From assembly GCA_963715195.1 (NCBI GenBank), contig CAVQRT010000017.1, positions 1-42,842 of the forward strand: a stretch of DNA of 42,842 nt, read 5' to 3'. This document shows positions 7,638 through 42,842 of this stretch, in pieces. The DNA comes from Thermodesulfovibrionales bacterium (GTDB lineage: Bacteria > Nitrospirota > Thermodesulfovibrionia > Thermodesulfovibrionales > SM23-35). Below the pieces are notes generated by a model. The model saw only the letters and a list, made by a program, of their open reading frames with translations. It made no database searches and was not told the DNA's origin. Position 1 is the stretch's first letter. Each line of letters begins with the position of its first letter. The position numbers and the translations under genes were made by a program.

Positions 7638-10600
7638 GTGAAGGTGAGCAGTAAGACTATTCGTTGGAAATTATTCCATTTACGGAAAGGTCCTCGCGGA
7701 GACCACTTGACACAAAAGTATGCCCGAGAAGAACGACCGCTGCGATCGGAACTCTTCAGTAGCGATCAGATGGAACAGCATGGCAAAACACTGGCAGGCT
7801 TGCATAAGTTAGGTCTGGTGCGTGCACGGGGCAAGCTGCTGAAAAGGCTGGCTGAAAATGAAAGAATCCTAATTGAAGTCCGCAACCTACTGCAGGATGC
7901 GGTTAAGACATATCGCCGGATTACACCGGCTGGAGAATGGCTGCTCGATAATTTCTATTTAGTCGAAGAACAGATTCATACGGCCAGGCGACACTTGCCA
8001 AAAGGTTACAGCCGTGAACTGCCTCGCTTGCAGGACGGCCAATCGGCAGGGCTTCCACGTGTGTATGACATCGCTCTGGAGACAATCTCGCACGGCGATG
8101 GGAGGATAGATTCTGAAAGTCTCAGCAGCTTTGTTACAGCCTACCAGTCCGTCACTTCACTAAAGTTGGGAGAGTTGTGGGCGATACCTATTATGCTACG
8201 CCTGGCATTGATCGAAAATCTCCGCCGCATTGGAACACGCATTGCTGCTGATATAATAGACCGAAACCTTGCCGACTATTGGGCCGACCAGATCACGGAG
8301 ATTGCCGAGAAGGATCCGAAGAACCTGATTTTGGCAGTTGCTGATATGACACGCTCGAACCCGCCGATGGTGAGTTCATTTGTTGCAGAATTTGCACGCC
8401 GATTGCAGGGGCAAGGGCCCGTGTTAGCAATGCCTCTCACCTGGATTAAGCAGCGTCTCTCCGATCACGGACTGACGATTGAACAGTTAGTACAATCGGA
8501 AAGTCAGCAACTGGCCACCGACCAGGTTTCCATAAGGAACAGCCTCAATAGTCTCCGTTTACTTGGCGCGGTAGACTGGCGCGAGTTCGTTGAGCAACTG
8601 AGCGTTGTTGAGCAGATACTGTGTGAGGATCCAGCTGGTGTCTATCCCAAAATGGATTTTCTCACCCGCGACAGATACCGTCACGTTGTAGAAAAATTGG
8701 CAAAGACTAGCGAGCTATCCGAAAGCGAGGTAGCACGTAAAGCGATCCATCTGGCGCATAAAGCTGCAGACAGAAAAGGCAATAATAATCGAACGGCACA
8801 CGTTGGCTTTTATATTATAGATAAGGAATTGACAGAGCTCGAACGAATAGCCAAGGTGCGTCTTTCCCCCCTGAGAGCTTTTCAGAGAATGGGTCGCAAG
8901 TTTGCTTTGTTTTTCTATCTTGGCACGATCACTTTGACTACGCTGGCCTTCACCGGGGTTTTGTTGTCGGTAGCGTACAACAGCGGGTTGCATGATTGGC
9001 TATTTGCGCTGATTGGTATCCTCTCTCTGCTATGCTCAAGTCACATTGCAGTAGCAATGGCAAACTGGATGGCAACGTTAATGTCCAAGCCGCACGTGTT
9101 GCCTCGAATGGACTTTTCCAAAGGAATTCCTTCTGAATCGAGCACACTGGCTGTAATTCCCTCTATGCTCACAGGGGTTCAGAACATCAAGAAATTGATC
9201 GAGGCGCTCGAAGTCCGTTACCTGGCAAATCAAGACAAAAACCTGTACTTTGGTCTACTGACTGATTTCCGGGATGCACACGCGGAAACTATGCCGGATG
9301 ATGAAATGCTGTTAGAACTAGCCCGGGAGGGAATCACAGATCTGAATGAAAAGTACAGGAGTGTAGAAGGTAACATTTTCTTCCTTTTTCACCGTCCACG
9401 CAGATGGAATCCTCAGGAGCGGGTCTGGATGGGTTACGAGCGTAAGCGAGGGAAGCTCGCTGCATTGAACGAGCTTCTGCGAAGCGGTCCACATGGTACC
9501 TCTAATGATCACTTCTCACTCATCGTTGGTAATACGGACATCTTATCAAATGTGAAGTATGTGATTACCCTTGACACAGATACACAACTGCCGCGTGATT
9601 CTGCGTGGCAGTTTGTGGGAGCAATGGCGCACCCTCTCAATCGTCCGCGGTACGATAAAGACAAACAGCGTGTCTCCGAGGGGTATGGCATCCTTCAGCC
9701 ACGTGTTGCTGTGAGCCTTGTGGGCATGAACCAGTCGCGGTATGCGCACTTGTTCGGTAGTGAGCCAGGCATTGACCCGTACACGCGTGCCGTCTCTGAC
9801 GTTTACCAGGACCTCTTTCACGAAGGGTCGTTTATTGGTAAGGGGATTTATGATGTCGATGCGTTTGAGCGAGCACTCAGTGGGCGCTTTCCCAAGAATA
9901 GGATTCTCAGTCATGATCTTTTGGAAGGATGCTATGCAAGAGCAGGGCTACTTAGCGATGTACAGTTATACGAAGAATATCCATCTGACTACAGAACAGA
10001 TGTGAGCCGTCGGCATCGCTGGATTCGCGGGGACTGGCAGATTGCTCGCTGGCTGCTGTCAGCCGTTCCGGGTTTCAGTTGTCACCGCCAGAAAAATCCG
10101 CTATCCAACCTGTCGCAATGGAAGATCTTTGACAATCTTCGTCGCAGTCTCGTGCCTACGGCGCTTATACTACTTTTGCTGCTAGGCTGGACACTGTTGA
10201 CACCGTTTTCGATATGGACTTTAGCAGTAATCGGAATAATCCTGATTCCTTCGTGGATTGCCTCTTTAGTTGAATTACTTCAGAAGCCGAGCGATGTGCT
10301 GCTCAGGCAGCATCTGGCCACCGCGGTGCGCTCAGCTGGCCGCTACTCTGCTCAAGCGGCATTTACGCTCGCATGTCTACCCTACGAAGCCTTCTTCAGT
10401 CTTGATGCGATTCTGCGTACGGCATGGCGGCTCATCATTCGCAGAAGACTCCTGGAGTGGAATCCTTCGAGCCAATCCAATCGCATGAGACGTACAGAGC
10501 TCATTGCATTCTACCGAAGGATGTGGATCTCACCTCTTATTGCTTTTGCTGCGCTTTTCTATTTAACGCTTTTAAGACCGGACGCACTGGCAGTAGCCGG

Positions 10601-13600
10601 GCCAATACTGGCTATCTGGGGTACCTCTCCTGCTATCGCCTGGTGGATCAGTCGGCCACTTACCCGCCGCCGTGCAAGGCTGACGACTGACCAGACCATA
10701 TTTCTTAGGAGGCTTTCCCGAAAGACGTGGGGGTTCTTCGAGACGTTCGTCGGTCCGGAAGATCATTGGCTTCCTCCTGATAATTATCAAGAGTATCGTA
10801 TTGCAATGGTCGGACATCGCACTTCTCCGACCAATATGGGGCTTGCGCTGCTCGCGAATCTTTCTGCATACGATTTTGGCTATATAACAGCCGGACAGCT
10901 TATTGAGCGCACTGAGCATGCATTTCACACAATGAGAAAACTGGAGCGACATCGAGGTCATTTCTACAACTGGTACGATACTCTCACTCTGAAACCGCTT
11001 CCGCCTAAGTACATTTCGACGGTGGACAGCGGGAACCTCGCGGCCAGTCTGATTACATTACGCCCGGGGTTACTCGAACTTGCCGATCAGAAAATTATAG
11101 GAGCACGGTTGTATGAAGGGCTTAGCGACACGATAAGAATTCTTCTGGACGTTGAAGAAGGAGCATCTTCCGCTGAACTCGCTCGACTTCAGAAAGATCT
11201 GGCGTTTGCGTGCGATTCCCGGCCAAACACGCTCACGGCCACAAGACTCTGCCTCGACCGGCTGTTGACATCGGCTGAGGAGGTGGTAGTCAACTTTAAT
11301 GATAACTCTAAGAGTCTCACAAAGTCGTGGGCATCTGCCCTCATCAGGCAATGCCAAGACGCCCTAGATGAGCTGACGTTTCTCGCTCCGTGGACATCGC
11401 TGAAGAGTGTTCCAAAGAGGTTCAGCGACCTTCCAGACATCTTTGATATCCCCACACTACGTGAACTGGCAAAACTTGATATGGAGTTGATGCCTGCAAC
11501 CAAGCATCAACTCAAATTTGATACCACACCTGAGGAAAGGAAATGGTTTGATGATTTGCGAGCGCTCGTTACAGAGGCAAGCCAGCGAGCCAGAGCTAGG
11601 ATTGCGAAAATCGACCTTCTTGCCCAGCAATCCAGCGAATTAGCCCGTATGGAGTATGATTTTCTGTTTGATGAGACTCGGAATCTCCTAGCTATCGGAT
11701 ACAATTTTGGTGAGCGTCGCCGGGACGAAAGTTACTACGATTTGCTGGCTTCTGAAGCGAGGATATGCACTTTCGTCGCGATCGCACAGGAACAACTACC
11801 GCAGGAGAGCTGGTTTGCGCTAGGGCGCTTACTTACGACTGTCGGTGGAGGACCGATTCTCCTTTCATGGAGCGGTTCGATGTTCGAGTACCTCATGCCA
11901 CTCCTGATGATGCCAACCTATGAAAATACGCTTCTCGACCGCACCTGCAAAGCAGCGGTGAAGAGGCAGATCGAGTATGGAAGACAGCGCGGAGTACCGT
12001 GGGGGATGTCGGAATCGGGCTACAATATGGTCGACATTCGTCTCAACTACCAGTACCGTGCCTTTGGCGTGCCTAACCTTGGACTGAAACGTGGACTCTC
12101 CGAAGATTTGGTTATTGCTCCTTATGCTTCGGCTCTGGCACTAATGATGGAGCCCGAAGAGGCGTGTCTGAATCTGCAGCGACTCGCCAAGGAGGGGCTG
12201 GAAGGAAAATACGGCTTCTATGAAGCAATCGACTACACTCCCTCACGTCTACCCCACGGGCAATCGAGTACCGTTGTTCGCTCTTTCATGGCTCATCACC
12301 AGGGCATGACTATCCTCTCTCTGGCTTATCTGCTCCTGGACCGTCCGATGCAAAGACGATTCGAGTCGGATCCCTTGGTCCAGGCAACCACACTGTTACT
12401 CCAGGAACGGGTTCCAAAGGCTACGACGTATTATTCTCCCGCTGAGCTCTCTGATTTACATATGATTTCCGGTGGAGCGGAGACAAGAGTGCGAGTTTTC
12501 AGTAGCCCGAGCACGCCAATTCCTGAAGTGCAGTTGTTATCAAACGGCAGATACCACGTGATGGTCACGAATGCAGGGGGCGGTTATAGCCGTTGGCAGG
12601 ACATCGCTGTCACGCGCTGGCGTGAAGATACTACCTCAGACAACTGGGGCATGTTCTGTTACCTTCGCGATATAACGAGCGGGGAGTGCTGGTCGAACGC
12701 ATATCAGCCGACACTTAAGCACTCGGACAAATACGAAGCGATATTTTCAGAAGCGCGAGCTGAGTTCCGACGTAGGGACTACGACTTCGATACGCATACG
12801 GAGATTACTGTTTCGCCCGAGGACGATATAGAAGTCCGCCGAATCACCATCACCAATCGGGCAATGACACGCAAAGCTATAGAGGTCACAAGTTACGCGG
12901 AAGTCGTTCTCACATCGCCAACCGCGGACGCTCTGCATCCGGCATTTAATAACCTCTTTATTCAAACTGAGATTCTCCCTCAACGCAAAACGATTCTGTG
13001 CACTCGCCGTCCCCGTTCTTTCGGCGAATCCGTGCCTTGGATGTTTCATCGGATGGCCGTGCATGGGGCAGAAATCAGAGAAGTTTCCTATGAGACGGAT
13101 CGCTCGAGATTCATCGGCCGCGGAAACAGGGTCACCAATCCCCAGGCAATGAGGGAATCCGCTCCGCTCTCTGGGAGTCAAGGCTCCGTGCTTGATCCGA
13201 TTGTCGCGATCCGTCATCACATAATGATTGAACCGGAAAAAACGGCAACGATCTATATTGTCTCTGGAATCGGAGAGACCCGCGACGCTGTCTTAACCCT
13301 TGTTGAGAAATATCAGGATCAGCGTCTCGCGGATCGCGTCTTCGATCTGGCATGGACCCATAGCCAAGTTGTTTTGCAGCAACTCAACGCTACAACAGCC
13401 GATGCACAACTTTATGAACACCTTGCGGGTCCGGTAATTTACGCCAACTCCTCGCTACGTGCCGACGCGAGTGTTCTTATAAGCAACCGCCGTGGTCAAT
13501 CTGGGTTGTGGGGCTATTCCATTTCAGGCGATTTGCCGATCGTGCTGCTGCAGATTGGAGACCCGGAAAATATTGATCTGGTGCGTCAACTCGTCCAGGC

Positions 13601-16370
13601 TCACGCATACTGGCGCTTGAAGGGGTTGGCAGTTGATTTGGTGATCTGGAACGAAGATCACACGGGTTACAGGCAACTGCTCTACGAACAAATCATGGGG
13701 ATGATTGCAGGCATCGAGGCGAACATGACTGATCGACCGGGTGGCATCTTTGTGCGAGCTGTTGACCAGATACCGAATGAGGACCGCATTCTCCTCCAAG
13801 CGGTCGCCCGTGCCATCCTTACCGATAACCGTGGGACACTTTGGGAACAGATTCACCGTCGCCGCCTTCCAGAACTGAGCGTGCCGTATCTCACGCCGTC
13901 CACTATGCACCGTACCGAACCTTTGGAAAACTCAGGGCTGCCTCGACATGATCTGATCTTCTTTAATGGTCTGGGAGGATTTACTCCTGATGGGCGCGAG
14001 TACGTGGTTACGACTGCTCACGGGCAAGTTACGCCGGCACCGTGGGTGAATGTGCTGGCAAACCCGTATTTCGGAACCGTCATCTCAGAGAATAGCCTTG
14101 CCTATACCTGGAGCGAGAATGCCCATGAGTTCCGCCTCACCCCTTGGTACAACGACCCGGTATGCGATTCAAGCGGAGAAGCTTTTTATCTTCGTGACGA
14201 AGAGAGCGGTTACTTCTGGTCCCTTACGCCACTGCCCAGCCGTGGAGCATTTCCCTATGTCTGCAGGCACGGGTTTGGTTATAGCGTATTTGAGCATACA
14301 GAGGACGGCATTGTCTCTGAGCTGTGGGTGTATGTAGCCCTGGATGCACCGATCAAGTTCATCATGTTAAAGATCAGGAACAAATCAGGTCGCCTGCGCC
14401 GCCTCTCCGCCACGGGATACATTGAATGGGTGCTTGGGAACCTGCGTGCTAAGTCGGCAATGCATATAGTGACCAAAATTGACCCCAATATCGGTGCGCT
14501 TTTTGCGCGAAACTCATATAACCTCGAGTTCGCCGACCGGGTAGCCTTCTTCGATACGGACGATACAATACGTACCGTAAGCGGTGACCGTACTGAGTTC
14601 CTTGGCCGTAATGGCACGCTTCAGAATCCGGCTGCAATGAAACACTCAAGGCTTTCCGGAAAGGTAGGAGCTGCTTTGGATCCTTGCGCCGCTATCCAGA
14701 TCCCATTTGATCTGGCGGATGGGCAAGAGCGAGAGATTGTCTTTAGGCTCGGTGTAGGGCGAGATGCCAATGACGCCAGAAATCTAGTGCTTCGATTTCG
14801 TGGATCTGCCGCAGCACGCGGTGCTCTTGAGGAGGTATGGCAATACTGGAATCACACTCTTGGCGCAGTGAATGTAGAAACACCCGATCAGTCCCTCAAC
14901 GTTTTGACTAACGGCTGGCTCTTATACCAAACTATAGCGAGCCGTCTCTGGGCTCGAAATGGCTACTACCAGCCGGGAGGTGCATTCGGTTTCCGCGATC
15001 AATTGCAGGATGTGATGGCACTTGTCCACGCTGAGCCGCGTCTCATGCGCGAGCACTTGCTTCGCTGCGCAGCCCGCCAGTTTCCAGAAGGAGACGTACA
15101 GCATTGGTGGCATCCCCCTTCAGGTCGAGGCGTACGTACTCACTGTTCTGATGATTATCTGTGGCTGCCGTTGGCAACATGTCGCTACGTTCTGAACACA
15201 GGGGACACCGGGGTATTGGACGAGCCTATCCACTTCATTAAAGGCCGCCCGGTAAATGCGGGGGAGGACTCGTATTACGATCTACCCAGTCAGTCTGAAG
15301 AAACGGTCAGTTTATACGAGCACTGTGTGCGAGCCGTTCTGAGGGCTTTTACTACCGGTGAGCATGGCCTACCACTCATCGGCTCCGGTGACTGGAACGA
15401 TGGTATGAACGCTGTGGGGGAAAAAGGCAGAGGCGAAAGTATTTGGTTGGGATTCTTCCTTTATAAAGTGCTCATGCAGTTTACTGAGATTGCACGCTTG
15501 CATGGTGACATCTCCTTCGTCGAACGCTGCCAGAGAAAAGCAGCTCAACTGCGCCAGAACATCGAGCAACATGGCTGGGATGGTAAATGGTATCGCCGCG
15601 CTTACTTCGACGACGGCTCACCGCTTGGTTCGGCAAGCAATACTGAGTGCCAGATTGACTCGATAGTACAAAGCTGGTCCGTTTTATCCGGGGCGGGAAA
15701 CGTCGAGCGCTCTCGCATAGCAATGGAAGCGGTTGACAAGCGCCTTGTTGACCGGGATCACGCGCTAATCCGCCTCCTGACCCCACCGTTCGATAAGTCG
15801 AATTTAAACCCCGGCTACATTAAAGGGTACGTCCCAGGTGTTAGAGAGAATGGCGGACAATACACTCATGGAGCAATCTGGGCTGTGATGGCATTCGCTT
15901 CATTGGGCGACAACCGGCGTGCATGGGAACTTTTTTCGATGATCAACCCCTTAAACCATGCGCGATCTCCTGAGGAGATAGAGACTTACAAAGTAGAACC
16001 CTACGTCGTTGCAGCTGACGTCTATGCGCTCTCGCCACATACCGGTCGGGGCGGCTGGACATGGTACACGGGATCGGCTGCATGGATGTACCGGCTTATC
16101 GTGGAGTCACTCCTAGGGTTGATTCTTGAAAAAGAAAAACTGCGAATCGCTCCTTGCCTCCCTGCCGATTGGGAGATTTATAAGGTACACTACCGATACC
16201 GGGAAACAGTTTATCATATTATCATCATGCAAGAGTACGATGGGAATAAAGAGATGAGTGTGAAAGTCGACGGCGTTGAGTGCGCCGACCAAGCCATTTG
16301 CCTTGTTGACGATCATCAGGAACATTTGGTGGAGGTGAGAATACGCTCCGCATACAGTAACAGGGATTGA
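7638..16370 (+). CDS. ndvB: Cyclic beta-1,2-glucan synthase (NdvB/Cgs/ChvB type; GT84 + cyclisation domain + GH94 phosphorylase)
   Basis: 2910 aa. GT motifs [33 protein letters not shown] helices; [28 protein letters not shown]94 motifs [24 protein letters not shown]. Confidence 0.95.
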
Positions 16371-33706: not shown

Positions 33707-33793
33707 TGGTGCCGAAGGCGGGACTCGAACCCGCACGGCCTTGCGACCACTAGACCCTGAACCTAGCGCGTCTGCCAGTTCCGCCACTTCGGC
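33707..33793 (-). tRNA. tRNA-Leu (anticodon CAG)
   Basis: GCCGAAGTGGCGGAACTGGCAGACGCGCTAGGTTCAGGGTCTAGTGGTCGCAAGGCCGTGCGGGTTCGAGTCCCGCCTTCGGCACCA: full cloverleaf, long variable arm, encoded CCA. Confidence 0.97.
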
Positions 33794-36668: not shown

Positions 36669-36711
36669 TCAACCCTCTCCCTGCCTTCTGCTCAATTGAC
36701 AAAACAAGACT

Positions 36712-37001
36712 TCGGCGGCCACATTCAGGCCCACGTGTTTCATGCAGACCAGAGCTCTGGCTCCGGCCATCGACGCCCCTATGCCCACCTCCATGGCCAC
36801 CTTCTCGTTGGGCGACCACTCGCAGTAGACCTCGTCGAACTTGGCAAGCTCTTCGAGGATCTCGGTACTCGGGGTGCCCGGATACGCGGCAGCCAGTTTG
36901 ACGCCAGCTTCCCAGGCCCCACGGGCGATCGCCTCGTTCCCGGAAAGAATCACCGCTTCTTCCAATTCAACTGCTTTCCCCGACTCGACCACAGGTGTCA
37001 T
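36712..37001 (-). CDS. iorA: Indolepyruvate/arylpyruvate:ferredoxin oxidoreductase alpha subunit, N-terminal ~96 aa, truncated at a junction
   Basis: LSGNEAIARGAWEAG, AYPGTPSTEI, EWSPNEKVAME, MKHVGLNVAA, then similarity is lost abruptly. RBS GGAGGAG. Confidence 0.9.
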
Positions 37002-37019: not shown

Positions 37020-39202
37020 CTAGGTTTGCGTTCCCGTCCTGCGCCGAAAGGCACCATACCATTCCATCCTGTCCAGAGCACGTGCCGCCGCCTGCGGTGA
37101 CGCAAGCACTATCGGGCTGTACCGCTTCCCCCGGTCGAAAAGCGACCCGCGGATGGGCGTATCGGGCACGTTGATTATGGGCTTTCCGGTCTTCTCCATG
37201 AGCTCCGCGACCAGATCAACAAAGGCGGTCTCCCAGGGACTGAGCCCTGCGTATTCACCGGTCTCCGATCTCTCCCGGACCTCACTGCCGCTGCTGGGCA
37301 CCCCCAGTACGGAGAGCACGATGACGGCGTCGACCGTATCGCATTCCGCAACCAGCTTGAGCACACGCGGGCCTACGTCTCCACCCGCGGTGGCTACCAT
37401 GTCGAGGGGGTTGTGCTTGCTCCAGAACGGGGGAAGGATCTCGTTCAGCGCAGCGTAGAGCTCGGGCGGGAAGTCCGCCAGCACGAGACCGTGCCGGGCC
37501 ACTTCGTCGGCCGCGAGGACGCCTGCCCCGCCCCCATTGGTCACCACCGCAATCCGTCGGCCCTTGGGCAGCGGATTGTAGGTTAGGCAGCTCACCCAGG
37601 TCCGCGACTTCCTGAGTGGTGGTGCAGGTGACCACCCCTGCCTGCCGAGCCGCCGCCTCCCAGACATCCGCCGAGCCGGCCATCGCTCCGGTGTGAGAAG
37701 CGGCCGCCTTGACGCCGTATTCCGTCACGCCGGCGCGTACCACCACCACGGGCTTCACCGCCGCCGTGCGTCGCGCCACTTCGAAGAAGCGCCGTCCGTC
37801 GTCGAGACCTTCGATGTACATCATGATTCCGGTGGTGCCGCTGTCACCCCTGAGGTAGTCGAGTACATCCACGGCGCCGATCTGGGCTTCATTCCCGACG
37901 CTGGCGAACTTGTCGATGCCGATGCCTCTCAACTGACACGCGTCGGTGATCTGGACACCCATGTTTCCCGATTGCGAGACCAGACTGAGCGTGCCCTTCG
38001 GTGGATGCAGCACGACGAAGCCGATGGCATGGAGTCGGACCTCGTTGGAGATAAGCCCCATGCAATTCGGTCCCATCAGGGTAACCCCGCCGCCGCTGGC
38101 GATCCGAGCGATCTCATGCTCGGCCTCGGCTCCCTGCTCACCGGTCTCGGAGAAGCCCGCGGCGATGGCGATAGCCGCCGGGATACCCTTGCGGCCGCAT
38201 TGCTCCAACATAGCCGCCACCTGATGCCCGCCGACAGCGAGAAGGGCAAGGTCGGGCGCTTCGGGCAACTCCTCCAGGCTAGCGTAGGCTTTGAGACCGA
38301 AGAACTCTCCACCTTTGGGATTGACCGGATAGACCTTGCCCGCATAGCCACCGTCGAGGATGGTACGAAGGGCGGACCCACCCCATTTCGTGACATCGCC
38401 GGACGCTCCAACCAACGCCATGGAACGAGGAGCCAGAAGAGCCCGCAGATTGGGGACAAAAGTGCCGCGGCTTCGCCCCAGTTCGGGTGGCACCCCCGCC
38501 GAAAGCACGACGAGAGCGTCGGCGGCCACCGGGCGATCGCCCTCGATGAGCAGGGGATTGATGTCCAACTCAGCCACCTGAGGGTGATCCACGGCTATCT
38601 GCCCTATCGCCTGGATGATCTCCGTCAAAGCCGCCATGTCTACCGGCGGGTAGCCGCGGAACGTGCCCAGCAGACGCTTGGCCTTGATCAAGCCGGGCAG
38701 TTCGGCCGCGTCGTGATCGTCCACAGGCGCCAGGGCCAAAGCAATATCCCCAAGGGCCTCGGTCAGTACTCCGCCAAGGCCGAAGGCCACAACCGGACCG
38801 AAAAGGGCATCGCGCTTCATGCCCACCATGAACTCACGGTTGCCGGGTACCATCCGCTCTATGAGCACGCCCTCAAGCGCATCTCCGGCCCGCTCTGCTA
38901 GTAGCTGGTAGCTCTCAGCGGATGCTTGCGCCCCCTCGATGCCCGACACGCCAGACCCAGTTCGGTCTTGTGCCGGATCTCTCCGCCCACCGCCTTCATG
39001 GCCAGCTTGCCCCCAGACGAGCGGCGGCGTCCGCGGCCTCCGCTCTGCTCTCTACCAGGGTGCTCTCGGGGACGGGGATACCATAGGCCGCCAGCAAGGC
39101 TTTGGACTGGTGTTCGTCGAGCGCCGACCTCCCTGCCGCCAGCGCAGCCGCGATGATCCCCGCGGCGACGTCGGGCTCCATGGGAAGTGATGGCCGGTAC
39201 AT
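37020..39202 (-). CDS. ADP-forming acyl-CoA synthetase (acetate--CoA ligase family), ATP-grasp then CoA-binding domain order, ~3 frameshifts
   Basis: LDEHQSKALLAAYGIPV, HKTELG, REFMVGMKRDALFGPVV, ELDINPL, MGPNCMG, SQSGN, AAASHTGAMAG (phospho-His), TNGGGAGVLAAD, NPLDM. Frame changes near 39010, 38955 and 37595. Confidence 0.9.
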
Positions 39203-39291: not shown

Positions 39292-39320
39292 ATGATAGAT
39301 GTTTATACCATTTTGGTCAA
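39292..39320 (-). promoter_or_regulatory. Sigma70 promoter of the acyl-CoA synthetase-iorA unit, with a GntR/FadR-like box in the spacer
   Basis: Minus strand TTGACC-17 nt-TATCAT in an AT patch within GC-rich DNA. The spacer contains TGGTATAAACA. Confidence 0.6.
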
Positions 39321-39504: not shown

Positions 39505-39554
39505 CCCGGCGCCGTTCGGCGCCCGCTACCTCCCTCATCATCGCGCCTGCGATC

Positions 39555-40883
39555 TCACACGGTGCAGCGCAGCACGTATAGCCCGTCGTGGAAGGTATCG
39601 ATGAAGATGTTGCCTCGGTTGTCAACCAGGACGTCTTCGGTGGTCGCGATGCGAGGCCCAGGGTACAGGTCGCCGGTCTTGTTGTTGAAGAGCCATTTGG
39701 GCGGGTCGGCCGGGATGAAGTAGGCGATCTCCCGGGGCACGAAGGGGTCGCTGATGTCGTAGATCCGGAGCCCCGCGTGGAAATAGCAGCAGTAGACGCG
39801 GTCGTTACGATCTTCCAGGGCCGGGTGGTAGTGCGGCTCGTGGATGTTGTGCGGCCCGAAGGGACCCACCCCTACCCCGGGAATCTCGTTGAAGTTCTTG
39901 TGAGGCCAGCCCTCGGGGATCTCCGGGTAGGGGAACAGCGAGACGAGGGTCGGGTCGGTGGGGTCGGAGATGTCCACCATGCCGATGAAATTGAGGGGCT
40001 GAGCCCCCGACGCGCTCGTGATCTTCTCGTTGAACACTGGGTAGCGCTCCCCTTCGCTGGTCATCACGGCATAGTCGCGCCGGGAGAGAGGGAGCACCGT
40101 GTGGCACCGGGCCCCGGCCACTTTGCCGGCAAAGGGCGGGTGGTGCCTGAGTTGCCCCACTAGCTGGGGCAGGGTGATGTCGGATATGTCGAGGACGACC
40201 ATGCCGGCTCCGCCCCAGCTCACATAGGCCAGATCGCCTTTGGGATAGGCCGGACCATGCATGACCGCGCTGTGGGACGCATGGCCATCTCGGGGTCGAA
40301 ATCGGGGCCGGGCTTGATCTCGATCTGGCCCGCCAGCCACTGGTCGGGCATCCACCAACGCCCCGCTTCGACCGGGCTGGTCGGGTCGGGGATGTCGAGG
40401 ATGCGGTAGATGAAATTCCGGAATCCTTTGCAGGTGGAGGAGAGGTGAACGTAGCGGCCACCGCCATAGAAGAAGCGATGGACCCCTCCGTGGCCCCCAC
40501 AATCCCACTGTGAGAGCTTCTTGGGGTTGACCGGGTCTTTCACGTCCCAGATGATGACCCCTTGCTCGAACGGATCCCCCCACTCATTGCCGTGCAGCCG
40601 GGGCAGCGTTCCCCCCAAGGCGGTGATCATGATCCCATCGGCCACCTGGATCTTGGGAGTACCTTGCCCGGGAAGATCGGGACCGGGGATGAACTTGAGG
40701 TACTCCGGCTTCGCGGGATCGGTCACGTCGACGACCGCCCAGCCGGGATGCTTGAAATGGGAGCCATAGGAGGTAGTACCGGCCGTCGACTTCCTGCATG
40801 GCCATCTGGAACCAGGGCTTGCCCTGCAGGTCGTGATAGCCGAGCAGTTCTACGTTCTTCGAGAATGCTCCTTTGCCTGCCAT
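39555..40883 (-). CDS. Cytoplasmic LVIVD-repeat beta-propeller protein (~440 aa), two frameshifts
   Basis: Repeats AVVDVTDP, IIWDVKDP, RILDIPDP, VVLDISD, GMVDISDP, RIYDISDP across ORFs 40584-40883, 40220-40726 and 39555-40583. No signal peptide. RBS AGGAGAG. Confidence 0.88.
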
Positions 40884-40993
40884 TATCTCTCCTGTGTCGA
40901 TCCTCTAGGGATGCGTGCTTATGACCATACCCGGTCGAGCCCGCCGGTCGCTCCGGGGGGCGGTCCGCCCGCGTTCGCGCAGGATCCGAGCGC

Positions 40994-41835
40994 TCACCTG
41001 GTGGTGATATACCCTTGCCACTGCTGGAGGTGGTCGGAGTCGGGGCAATAGAGGATAAAGACCCCCACGAAGTCCTTGAAAGGCTCAAAGAAGGGGAGCT
41101 TCTCCCACGCTGCCCAGGACGGCCTGGTGTACTGAGCGGCCTTCTCCAGGACGGCCCGCCGCCAGCCTTCCGAATCGTCGAACCAGACCTCGGAGATGCG
41201 CTGGAAGGGGTTGATCCGGGGGTCGTCCAACTGTCGGCTGGAGATAAAACGGTTCACCTCAGGGTTTGCACACACTTCGGGAGCGAAGACCCCCTTGAAC
41301 CAGGCGTCACCTTCGTCGATGGAGACCTCGTCGGGGTACTTGAGTAGGAACAGCCAGCGGTAGTTTGGCCCCGCGTCCGTGAGCCGGCCGGCTCCCTTGA
41401 AGTCGTCCTCCCAGAAGACAGGCGCGAAAGAGAAAACCACCGGATGATAACCCTCGCGGCTTCCCCTGCCAGTCCCGACTGGCGCAGCTCCTTGCTGGGC
41501 GGCTGACAGGTCATCTCCATGAAGTCCTCGGGAAACTCCTCGCCGAAGGCGATGCCGGTCGGGTGGCCGGTGCCCCTGCTCTGGAATATATTGAAGAGCC
41601 GGTAGTGCTCGGTCATCATGCCGTTATAGGTGCCGAAGCCGAGGGCCCCTTCGGGGAGCGGCAGCGCATGGTACGTGCAGTACTTGGTGCAGTAGGGCAT
41701 GAACTGAGAGATGCTCTCCGGAACGTGTTGCTTGTACAGCCAGCGCCATATCTTGGGCCGGTCGTTGTCGGAGCGGAAGTTCTGGAGGATGAAGCTACGC
41801 ATGGGGCGGAATTCAGGGAAATAGGCCTTCGCCAG
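40994..41835 (-). CDS. Bacterial chalcone isomerase-like protein (Eubacterium ramulus CHI family), frameshift near 41450-41475
   Basis: PMRSF...RPKIWRWLYKQHVPESISQFMPYCTKY...MTEH, WEDDFKGAGR...GPNYR, EVWF, RPSWA...PFFEP and terminal GYITTR. These align with the E. ramulus CHI sequence as I recall it (PMRSL, RPKLQRWIYKVHIPDSISQFEPYVTKY, LTEH, WEKDLKGKGR, GYITMR). Confidence 0.8.
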
Positions 41836-41842
41836 CCCCTCC

Positions 41843-42842
41843 TCACTCCCCGCCTTCGCCTGGGGCGACTCCGCCGGCCCCGTCTTCCCCGCCGGGGCGC
41901 GCTCTGGCTTGGCGGGGGTCAGGTATTTCTGGTATTTGAGGGTCTTCGCCCCCAGCTCATCCATGCCGGCCGGGGCCTTGAGGGAGACGTTGACCAGCTC
42001 GTCAAGGTGCTCGAACTTGCCCGAGAGCAACATGTGGGAATGGACCCGGTCCTCGTCTGTGACCTCGAAGCCGACCTTGCCGTCTGCCACGCTCAAGGTT
42101 CCCCGCACCCCGCAGACGCCGCAGATCGCGGGGTAGGCATCGCCGTCGTTGCGCACTTCGACGAGCTTGGAGTGGCAGACGGGGCAGAGGCCCGGCTCGC
42201 CGATGTACTCGGCCTCTTCCAGGGGCTTCTTCAGGGTCTCCGCTACGTGCCGGCCGGAGCGGTGAGCCCGCTCCAGAAGGTCCTCGCGCAGCGTGACGAC
42301 CTTGGGCAGAGCGACCCAGTTGACCAGGATCCTGTCCACCACCTCGATCTGCATAGGGAGCGCGAAGAGACTCAGCATGGGGAGGGCGAGGGTGTCCCAC
42401 TCGCTGCCCCCGACGGCGATGAGCGAGGCGGCCCGGGGCTTGAAGGCCCGCTCGTCAGGGCCCTGGCCCGGGTGATGCCCCGCTCGGCCCGCATCTTCTT
42501 GGCGGCCAGGCGGAAGGCCTGGTCGTGCGAGGGCCCCATGCGGTCGTTCAAGCTCTTGAGCTGACCGCTGGGGGACTTCTCGTAGATCGGGGAGCCGACG
42601 ATCAGGCCGTCGGCCTCCATGATCTTCTCGTCGATGAAGGGGAAGTCGTCGTTCTTGATGACACATCGGCCCGGACCGCATTTCTCGAAGAGGTCGATGA
42701 CGCAGGAGTTGCAGCCCGTGCAGGGCTTGATGTTCAGGTCGTGCAGGTGGATGAGCTCGACCTCGGCTCCGGCTTCCTCCGCCCCCATCAAGGCTTCCTT
42801 CACCAGGATCTCGGTGTTGCTCAACCTCCTGCCGCATGAGAT
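41843..42842 (-). CDS. Flavodoxin-fold FMN reductase, flavone reductase (FLR)-like; 5' end off-window, frameshift near 42470
   Basis: ISCGRRLSNTEILVKEALMGA, CTGCNSC, SPIYEK, DRMGP, AVGGSEW, RAHRSGR, CPVCHS, CGVCG, LSGKFEH. These match the Flavonifractor plautii FLR layout as I recall it. Confidence 0.75.

Follow-up and report, generated by a model that had tools for sequence, protein, structure and literature searches.

The locus described here raises the question of which enzyme cuts the product of bacterial chalcone isomerase (CHI), FLR being the enzyme that reduces flavonols. The window, by which we mean the whole stretch of 42,842 nucleotides analysed, is an entire contig (CAVQRT010000017.1; C17 of genome G000 in our numbering) of assembly GCA_963715195.1, listed as a Thermodesulfovibrionales bacterium. 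Its minus strand carries at 39555..40883 a gene for a His-rich LVIVD-type seven-bladed beta-propeller of about 441 amino acids in intact homologs, a candidate auronol C-C hydrolase. An earlier note on this DNA had taken the propeller for a candidate ring-cleaving hydrolase; our results support that reading, in which the activity itself is what we infer. We propose, at a probability of roughly 60%, that the propeller is a metal-dependent C-C hydrolase that would cut auronols (alphitonin, maesopsin) to phloroglucinol and arylpyruvate, substrate and metal both being presumed. With similar reserve we lean towards the clade being the missing auronol (alphitonin/maesopsin) hydrolase, in the form of a seven-bladed propeller with a binuclear metal site that breaks an aryl-carbonyl C-C bond by hydrolysis. 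Auronol cleavage is the preferred reading because the propeller tracks chi, resembles a hydrolase with two metals and is repeatedly found next to 2-oxo-acid oxidoreductases.

Papers are cited below by PMC number. CHI converts taxifolin to alphitonin via a proposed chalcone and a di-keto (1,2-diketone) tautomer (PMC9694015). The alphitonin-cleaving enzyme was called unknown in a 2025 paper that cites a 2001 study for the step (PMC12203004), and the excerpts of a 2026 review name ring contraction by CHI and mention no cleaving enzyme (PMC13515148). Arylpyruvate has been hypothesised as the intermediate that explains arylacetate and aryllactate products: the authors trace both the 3,4-dihydroxyphenyllactate formed by C. 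scindens and the 3,4-dihydroxyphenylacetate formed by C. decagia to a hypothetical arylpyruvate (PMC11170127). We found no paper assigning auronol cleavage to a propeller in a search that left most subscription journals and bioRxiv supplements outside its reach, so a prior assignment is possible; the excerpts of PMC9371700, PMC11277490, PMC13202482 and PMC13770598 held nothing on ligands or alphitonin cleavage.

The propeller follows chalcone isomerase across genomes

Co-occurrence was counted in 763 genomes, namely the order of the probable donor of the gene cluster (all 61 genomes; see below) and samples of the G067 family (401) and the G004 family (301), with a PF18232 match at E ≤ 1e-15 required for chi and a profile match at E ≤ 1e-20 or 1e-30 for the propeller. 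The propeller was present in 63/64 genomes with chi versus 16/699 without, a co-occurrence that the earlier note had anticipated. Within the donor's order, 28 of the 61 genomes had chi, 40 had the propeller and 28 had both, and a full chi was found in 0/21 propeller-negative genomes; ten further genomes with weak chi-like genes were scored chi-negative, and nine of these had the propeller. The G067 family sample contained 11 genomes with chi, 12 with the propeller (one match partial) and 11 with both, and the G004 family sample 25, 27 and 24, respectively, the exception being a partial chi match. Exclusion of four Firmicutes genomes that were first found via the propeller gave 31/32.

Phloretin hydrolase (Phy) served as a control. 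In the G067 sample Phy was found in 18/401 genomes, 10 of these 18 lacking both chi and the propeller; it was present in 8/12 propeller genomes, and four genomes with chi and propeller gave no Phy match. In the donor's order, 35/40 propeller genomes had Phy and 4 genomes had Phy without the propeller. This control and the co-existence of Phy and propeller therefore indicate that the propeller goes with chi and is no substitute for Phy, and we are highly confident that the propeller belongs to the chi branch. It is true, as was remarked earlier, that the window contains no Phy or Fcr gene; as an argument for the propeller this fails, given the 35/40 genomes, and since only 6.1 kb of the donor is present the absence is uninformative on the donor.

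Gene neighbourhoods were compared in a GTDB scan that gave 318 related stretches among 336 pattern matches, of which the best 80 were kept, making 79 loci with up to 10 kb on each side; the neighbourhood counts given here are among these best 79 loci, many of which are short. A full chi was found in 19/79 loci (22 when short chi-like genes were included) and an flr-like gene in 18/79. The indolepyruvate:ferredoxin oxidoreductase gene iorA occurred in 22/79 loci and Vor in 3, with IorA or Vor within 10 kb in 24/79. Other neighbours were an ADP-forming acyl-CoA synthetase (ACD; 21/79), a VOC/glyoxalase gene (17/79), an Fcr-like flavin oxidoreductase (9/79), Phy (5/79) and a 2-hydroxyacid dehydrogenase (4/79). 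Linkage between propeller and chi was seen in Actinomycetota, Bacillota, Acidobacteriota and Chloroflexota, all in one clade, so that the linkage of homologs to flr/chi proposed as a check holds in four phyla. In a quick IQ-TREE run, from which 4/79 loci with short matches were left out, the propeller clade stood well apart from outgroups (SH-aLRT 100, stem 1.04).

The predicted propeller carries a conserved His/Glu set

The sole significant sequence match among Protein Data Bank (PDB) structures was the haloalkylphosphorus hydrolase / phosphotriesterase Sb-PTE of Sphingobium sp. TCM1 (HMMER E 5e-9). An intact homolog, P0004, to which the window gene is 84–90% identical, was modelled by AlphaFold with 107 aligned homologs, giving seven four-stranded blades (pLDDT 95.8, pTM 0.93), and the best Foldseek match of this model was again Sb-PTE (5HRM, E 3.6e-18; next entry 4e-9). 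In a wide VIA search, Sb-PTE entry 5IOJ (Z 27.9, rmsd 3.2, 358 aligned, 21%) had the longest alignment and the top identity of 50 rows; it ranked 39th by Z, and WD40 proteins tied with or exceeded it. An earlier VIA alignment had returned only WD40-type propellers (Z 29–30) among its best 50, with 5HRM not among them. VIA Z-scores do not separate propellers, and the VIA ranking is therefore uninformative on function.

Inner strands of the P0004 model begin near residues 24, 78, 133, 212, 261, 343 and 414, and each of Q26, K77, H135, H208, H260, H344 and E415 is placed at such a start or immediately ahead of it, while E276 comes after the second strand of blade 5. The conserved His and Glu residues would, in this model, face a common central cavity. 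The six motifs that the earlier note had picked out (GVHR, VMHGP, RCHT, TSEG, GPHNIHE and TTED) are all present in the sequence, and its expectation for the placement of the His residues agrees with the predicted seven-blade model, where invariant His residues fall at the inner-strand starts of successive blades.

Conservation was scored in 322 full-length homologs of 400–520 amino acids. K77, H135, R136, H208, H260, E276, R279 and E348 were invariant (322/322), Q26, H344 and N345 were present in 321/322, E415 in 319/322 and His347 in 318/322; the remaining His residues varied. We take Sb-PTE residues 258, 317, 389, 407 and 475 to be its metal ligands (His4 plus a bridging Glu). The candidate metal ligands of the window gene, all on the minus strand, are His135 in GVHR (40478..40480), aligned to Sb-PTE H258; His208 in MHGP, part of VMHGP (40257..40259), at the blade position of H317, a pair that HMMER does not align; His260 in RCHT (40101..40103), aligned to H389; and His344 (39849..39851) in GPHNIHE, at the blade position of H475 and followed by Asn345, His347 and Glu348 (whole motif 39837..39851). 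Glu276 in TSEGER (40053..40055), aligned to E407, is the candidate bridging ligand. Lys77 (40652..40654) is a candidate substrate-binding residue, as are Gln26 (40806-08) and Arg279 (40044-46), and Glu415 in TTED lies at 39636..39638.

In 53 distant relatives (<40% identity), H135, H208, H260, E276 and H344 were kept in 50–53/53, whereas Q26, K77, R279, E348 and E415 were variable, position 415 being Glu in 10/53. As the core is kept while these other residues vary, the alignments suggest that the metal core is common to all and that the substrate residues are specific to the clade. Overall, we regard metal-dependent catalysis by the propeller as quite probable. The protein also appears to be cytoplasmic, in keeping with the earlier claim that it has no signal peptide: its N-terminus, MAGKGAFSKNVELLGY, contains no hydrophobic signal stretch, residues 11–17 form a strand in the predicted model, and a 10-residue hydropathy above 1.8 within the first 40 residues occurs in only 2/322 homologs.

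Weighing the proposed function against alternatives

Several observations weigh against auronol cleavage. Gene linkage is silent on which bond is cut and on whether the CHI product acted upon is an auronol or a chalcone. There are 16 genomes with the propeller and no full chi; no more than 32/64 genomes have chi and the propeller within 6 kb of each other, and in genome G277 (see below) the two are unlinked. The genomes counted are incomplete and mutually related, and hence are not independent trials, so that Fisher p-values exaggerate the association. The DNA retrieved for 36/79 loci has none of chi, flr, phy, ior and vor, and several genomes have 2–6 propeller matches; given these multiple copies and the other contexts described below (PanB-like/FAD; OYE/glycyl-radical), not every copy need act on auronols. 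On the structural side, convergence of the His residues on the propeller axis is deduced from strand positions in the model, and only 3/5 residue pairs with Sb-PTE (H135/H258, H260/H389 and E276/E407) are directly aligned by HMMER, H208/H317 and H344/H475 matching by blade position only. The terminal Glu metal ligand of Sb-PTE, E201, has no Glu counterpart in the propeller clade, where blade 2 has P76-K77; judging from conservation, E348 or E415 may substitute for it.

The alternative that survives best, unlikely in our view, is that the propeller uses the CHI product for other chemistry, such as a cut between the carbonyls (giving trihydroxybenzoate and arylacetaldehyde or similar), a benzilic-acid-type rearrangement or lactone hydrolysis, with a separate enzyme releasing phloroglucinol. 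The same propeller–chi linkage applies to it, its case is helped by Sb-PTE, the nearest solved relative, hydrolysing ester-type bonds rather than C-C bonds, and the product of the VOC/glyoxalase gene found nearby in 17/79 loci could take part. However, an arylpyruvate product fits the recurring 2-oxo-acid oxidoreductase genes (24/79, and also F. plautii-type loci) and the 2-hydroxyacid dehydrogenase in 4/79 loci, and the products of C. scindens and C. decagia have been traced to such a hypothetical arylpyruvate (PMC11170127).

Less probable still is a chalcone or (alpha-hydroxy)dihydrochalcone hydrolase, that is, an alternative phloretin hydrolase that would yield phloroglucinol and a cinnamate or arylpropionate, either of which ACD would activate. 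CHI also makes chalcones from flavanones (PMC9694015), ACD follows the propeller in 21/79 loci, an Fcr-like oxidoreductase is near in 9/79, and the four chi and propeller genomes of the G067 sample without a Phy match would suit such an enzyme. Yet the propeller co-exists with Phy (in 35/40 propeller genomes of the donor's order, in 8/12 of the G067 sample and, for 5/79 loci, inside a single 20-kb locus), ten Phy-positive, chi-negative genomes are without it, and the 2-oxo-acid oxidoreductase (IOR) would be left unexplained.

We give little credence to the propeller being an esterase, lactonase or phosphotriesterase of broad specificity, similar to Sb-PTE, that accompanies polyphenol-degradation genes without performing a core step. 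No solved structure other than Sb-PTE gave a significant sequence match, the wider superfamily has many members (269 representatives at E ≤ 1e-30), and on a Haloarcula plasmid a relative of 35% identity has no annotated chi neighbour; set against this are the near-complete match with chi in three lineages (63/64), the separate clade (SH-aLRT 100, stem 1.04) with its own Q26, K77, R279, E348 and E415, and the lack of a signal peptide. Finally, a non-catalytic CHI/FLR partner (a scaffold or ligand-binding protein, as propellers often are, with WD40 proteins tying with or exceeding Sb-PTE by VIA Z) or a dead pseudogene in this genome (two frameshifts in the assembled copy) is very improbable, the invariant His4/Glu set arguing for catalysis and the frameshifts being absent from 98–99% identical short-read contigs, one of which spans 39530-41016, with similar indels in the neighbouring flr, chi and acd genes.

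Reading frame of the propeller gene

ORF (open reading frame) translation and Pfam place the ATG at 40883 and the stop at 39555 on the minus strand. The gene and strand given in the earlier note stand, but an intact single ORF does not, as the gene is split over three pieces in two frames (about 40883-40770, 40768-40280 and 40270-39555, with 84%, 90% and 86% identity, respectively, to intact P0004 of 441 amino acids). By DNA alignment against 4/4 intact relatives, the first frameshift is one extra base at 40769 and the second is two extra bases at about 40274..40278. Both were compared with contigs from four estuary or sediment short-read runs (X1–X4) of four studies, the best of which could be the source sample. 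The first was absent in both runs covering the site (X2 and X4) and the second in 4/4 runs; a single short-read contig covers 39530-41016 with 15 substitutions and without either set of extra bases. Because short-read contigs of near-identical strains lack them, the frameshifts are most likely sequencing errors, and since the flr, chi and acd genes around it carry like indels, the propeller gene is, on this comparison, most likely real and intact in its source organism. The pseudogene reading was rejected on the same two grounds.

Neighbouring genes and origin of the cluster

The propeller gene lies, as had been stated, between chi and arylpyruvate-processing genes, with Chalcone_N on one side and the acyl-CoA synthetase and iorA on the other, all on the minus strand. 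The bacterial chi gene (Chalcone_N; 40994..41829) is frameshifted near 41466 and keeps the His (KQHVPES) that matches His33, a residue with a catalytic role in CHI (PMC9694015). Next to it, the flavone reductase-like flavodoxin gene flr (41905..42842) has lost its 5' end at the contig end and is frameshifted near 42470; it is homologous to the F. plautii-type flr of locus L083 (41% via L001), and the flr of such F. plautii-type loci, L083 included, is identical to the crystallised FLR (PDB 7D38). In the assembly a single stop-free frame at 41254-42837 (minus strand) takes in the end of flr and the beginning of chi (C-terminal and N-terminal parts, respectively); the two are separate genes in the relative L001, and the joined frame, at a site to which none of the listed contig pieces extends, is either another indel error or a fusion.

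On the other side, the ACD gene (37020..39200; 5' end approximate) has frameshifts near 37593, 38948 and 39009, and the first ~97 codons of iorA, which encodes the indolepyruvate:ferredoxin oxidoreductase alpha subunit, occupy 36712..37001, where the gene is cut. A sigma70-like promoter match (TTGACC-17-TATCAT, 39292..39320, minus strand) precedes acd-iorA, and two such sites were found versus 0.4 expected in shuffles, by consensus match only. This arrangement suggests that acd-iorA is a second transcription unit, separate from flr-chi-propeller. Features of the host part appear ordinary and include a 2,910-aa GH94/glucoamylase protein (7638-16370, plus strand), presumably of the cyclic beta-1,2-glucan synthase type, and a tRNA-Leu (33707-33793, minus strand).

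The cluster probably does not belong to the genome in which it was assembled. A probable chimeric join at 36711..36712 connects a host contig (GC ~0.49) to a Thermoleophilia-like fragment (GC ~0.64). GC was 0.62–0.65 over 36.7–42.8 kb versus 0.39–0.51 per contig in the genome, and the tetranucleotide distance of the 6.1-kb tail to the genome was 0.050 (median 0.012), beyond all 443 windows of 6.1 kb, compared with only 0.011–0.016 to Thermoleophilia-type loci. The tail shares 70–86% DNA homology with these loci, ending exactly at 36712 inside iorA. In runs X1, X2 and X4 (3/4), contigs have loose ends at 36712 and continue with other sequence, and no listed short-read contig piece from the four runs, in which the host flank is barely covered there, bridges 36711/36712. 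The listed contamination of the genome is 6.57%. The GC-rich tail is very likely a chimeric mis-join, and the flavonoid cluster most likely comes from an actinomycete related to 'RBG_16_64_13' and Thermoleophilia metagenome-assembled genomes (MAGs), not from the host genome. True horizontal transfer into the host was considered and is not favoured, as iorA is cut mid-gene, homology stops at 36712 and no contig piece bridges the join. A MAG contig that probably holds a foreign pathway by mis-assembly is a warning.

Peat MAGs that express fcr, phy and/or chi on catechin include RBG-16-64-13, Chersky-299 and CTSoil-080 (PMC12203004), and these names recur among the propeller loci retrieved here. 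A Phy search of the host genome gave no match, and its control was likewise without signal. Another GC-rich stretch (0.67–0.70) closes contig C36 of this genome (26001-29272) and is possibly a second foreign tail.

Occurrence in known flavonoid degraders

A cluster of 1,209 sequences includes a Flavonifractor plautii protein (WP_226916368.1) 54% identical to P0004. Metagenome loci with the F. plautii propeller have the order flr-chi-small membrane ORF-propeller, and genes for a 2-oxoacid oxidoreductase and PTB run divergently from these; the small hydrophobic ORF between chi and propeller (9418-9936 of L083) had no Pfam match. In F. plautii, flr is A4U99_05915 and chi A4U99_05920 (Yang 2021, PMC7862272), and A4U99_05925 and _05930 were among the STRING partners tested on apigenin, of which only flr was active (source data of PMC7862272). 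From the order of the tags, A4U99_05930 is probably the propeller.

A Clostridioides difficile locus (L185; NZ_CP149720.1 63814-67858) reads LysR, then propeller-flr-small ORF-DUF1097-chi, and the C. difficile FLR is 64% identical to the F. plautii enzyme. The genes flr, chi and propeller form an apparent operon in both species. Matches to chi and flr were reported earlier for C. difficile (PMC8398226), and the gene content suggests an unrecognised flavonol-degrading capacity. A DUF1097 gene adjoins chi in C. difficile and also in genome G397. Genome G277 has a CHI identical at 277/279 positions to that of E. ramulus, together with a propeller. The 90% cluster of the G277 propeller includes a protein of Eubacterium oxidoreducens, which degrades quercetin, and another cluster has Catenibacillus sp. 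records.

Other gene contexts of the propeller family

A second context (L010, L013, L015-L018, L021, L022, L030, L032, L052) has SDR, DUF3237 and EthD genes upstream, followed by propeller-ACD-iorAB; these loci are mostly without a full chi nearby and often have MFS and VOC genes. EthD occurs in 11/79 loci and may be another isomerase; hhalign of EthD against CHI gave a probability of 0.7%, from shallow alignments. In L020, L023, L025, L026 and L074 the propeller adjoins genes for a PanB-like protein and an FAD oxidoreductase, joined in some loci by BKACE, and these copies may be a paralog with another substrate. In L039, L045-L048, L050 and L054 it lies with MFS, an OYE-type flavin oxidoreductase and VOC, with a glycyl-radical enzyme in three loci. 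Holophaga foetida and Parasporobacterium paucivorans (L044, L068, L061, L062; G005, G067) have two propeller copies each and a full chi elsewhere. Relatives of ~36% identity are common on Sinorhizobium/Rhizobium megaplasmids (NZ_CP104144.1, NC_009621.1 and others; 82 plasmid records matched).

The flr-chi-propeller clusters (L001-L004, L014, L024, L031) are often accompanied by URO-D-family methyltransferases and corrinoid proteins (URO-D in 16/79 loci, B12-binding in 8/79), neighbours whose presence suggests O-demethylation of methoxylated flavonoids.

Proposed mechanism and significance

In the proposed route, the predicted cytoplasmic propeller would act directly after CHI on alphitonin or maesopsin. 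H135, H208, H260, E276 and H344, perhaps with E348 or E415, would coordinate a pair of divalent metals (Mn, Zn or Fe) that bind the diketone or hemiketal oxygens, and the 2-oxo-acid end would be kept in place by K77 and R279. Attack of a metal-bound hydroxide on the carbonyl attached to the phloroglucinol ring would be followed by protonation of the ipso carbon and departure of the ring, a retro-Friedel-Crafts deacylation with the net reaction of phloretin hydrolase in another fold. The arylpyruvate could then pass through IOR/VOR to arylacetyl-CoA and through ACD or PTB/BUK to arylacetate and ATP; alternatively, a 2-hydroxyacid dehydrogenase could convert it to aryllactate.

If this holds, a five-step flr-chi-propeller-IOR-ACD/PTB route would take dietary and plant-litter flavonols to arylacetates, and it would be common to Firmicutes of the gut (F. 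plautii, E. ramulus, E. oxidoreducens, C. difficile) and to Thermoleophilia from sediment that are as yet uncultured. In metagenomes from gut and wetland, the gene would mark the flavonol-to-arylacetate branch, C-C hydrolysis would join the chemistry of metal-propeller enzymes, and a natural function would be indicated for the superfamily from which Sb-PTE arose. Host effects have been reported for the products 3,4-dihydroxyphenylacetate and 4-hydroxyphenylacetate, which arise in the gut as metabolites of quercetin and kaempferol (PMC9860326). With a single candidate in cultured, studied strains and a likely substrate that is commercially available (PMC11170127), the proposal is directly assayable.

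Comparison with known systems

The C-terminal piece of the window gene matches Pfam LVIVD (PF08309; 42.5 bits versus a cut-off of 20.2), the closest ESM Atlas clusters are LVIVD or hypothetical proteins, and the score against Choice-of-anchor B (TIGR04312) was 22 bits compared with a curated 100. The LVIVD family was described from cell-surface proteins (PMC2447325), whereas proteins of the propeller clade are single-domain, lack a signal peptide and have an invariant His/Glu centre.

With Sb-PTE the clade shares the predicted seven-bladed propeller and the three directly aligned residue pairs, and a binuclear manganese centre is named in the title of 5IOJ. The two differ in sequence (17–21% identity), in the extra conserved K77, R279, E348 and E415 and the flavonoid gene context of the clade, and in the bond concerned, which for the propeller is proposed to be C-C, not P-O. 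Phy and PhlG (DAPG_hydrolase, PF18089) are alike in the proposed net reaction, hydrolytic release of phloroglucinol from an acyl-phloroglucinol, but belong to another family: PF18089 had no Pfam match in the three window pieces or in P0244, the propeller has its own fold, and the distributions differ, Phy and propeller co-existing in most genomes. The propeller is therefore likened to Sb-PTE in its predicted metal scaffold and to Phy in its proposed net reaction, and is not a Phy.

The published flr-chi-fcr-phy scheme for F. plautii and E. ramulus has four genes and uses Fcr and Phy even for 4-hydroxyphenylacetate (PMC9860326). The present system shares the flr and chi families with it, and in F. 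plautii-type loci the propeller lies two genes after chi. The four-gene scheme contains no propeller, in contrast to the separate flr-chi-propeller-IOR branch that the propeller would complete.

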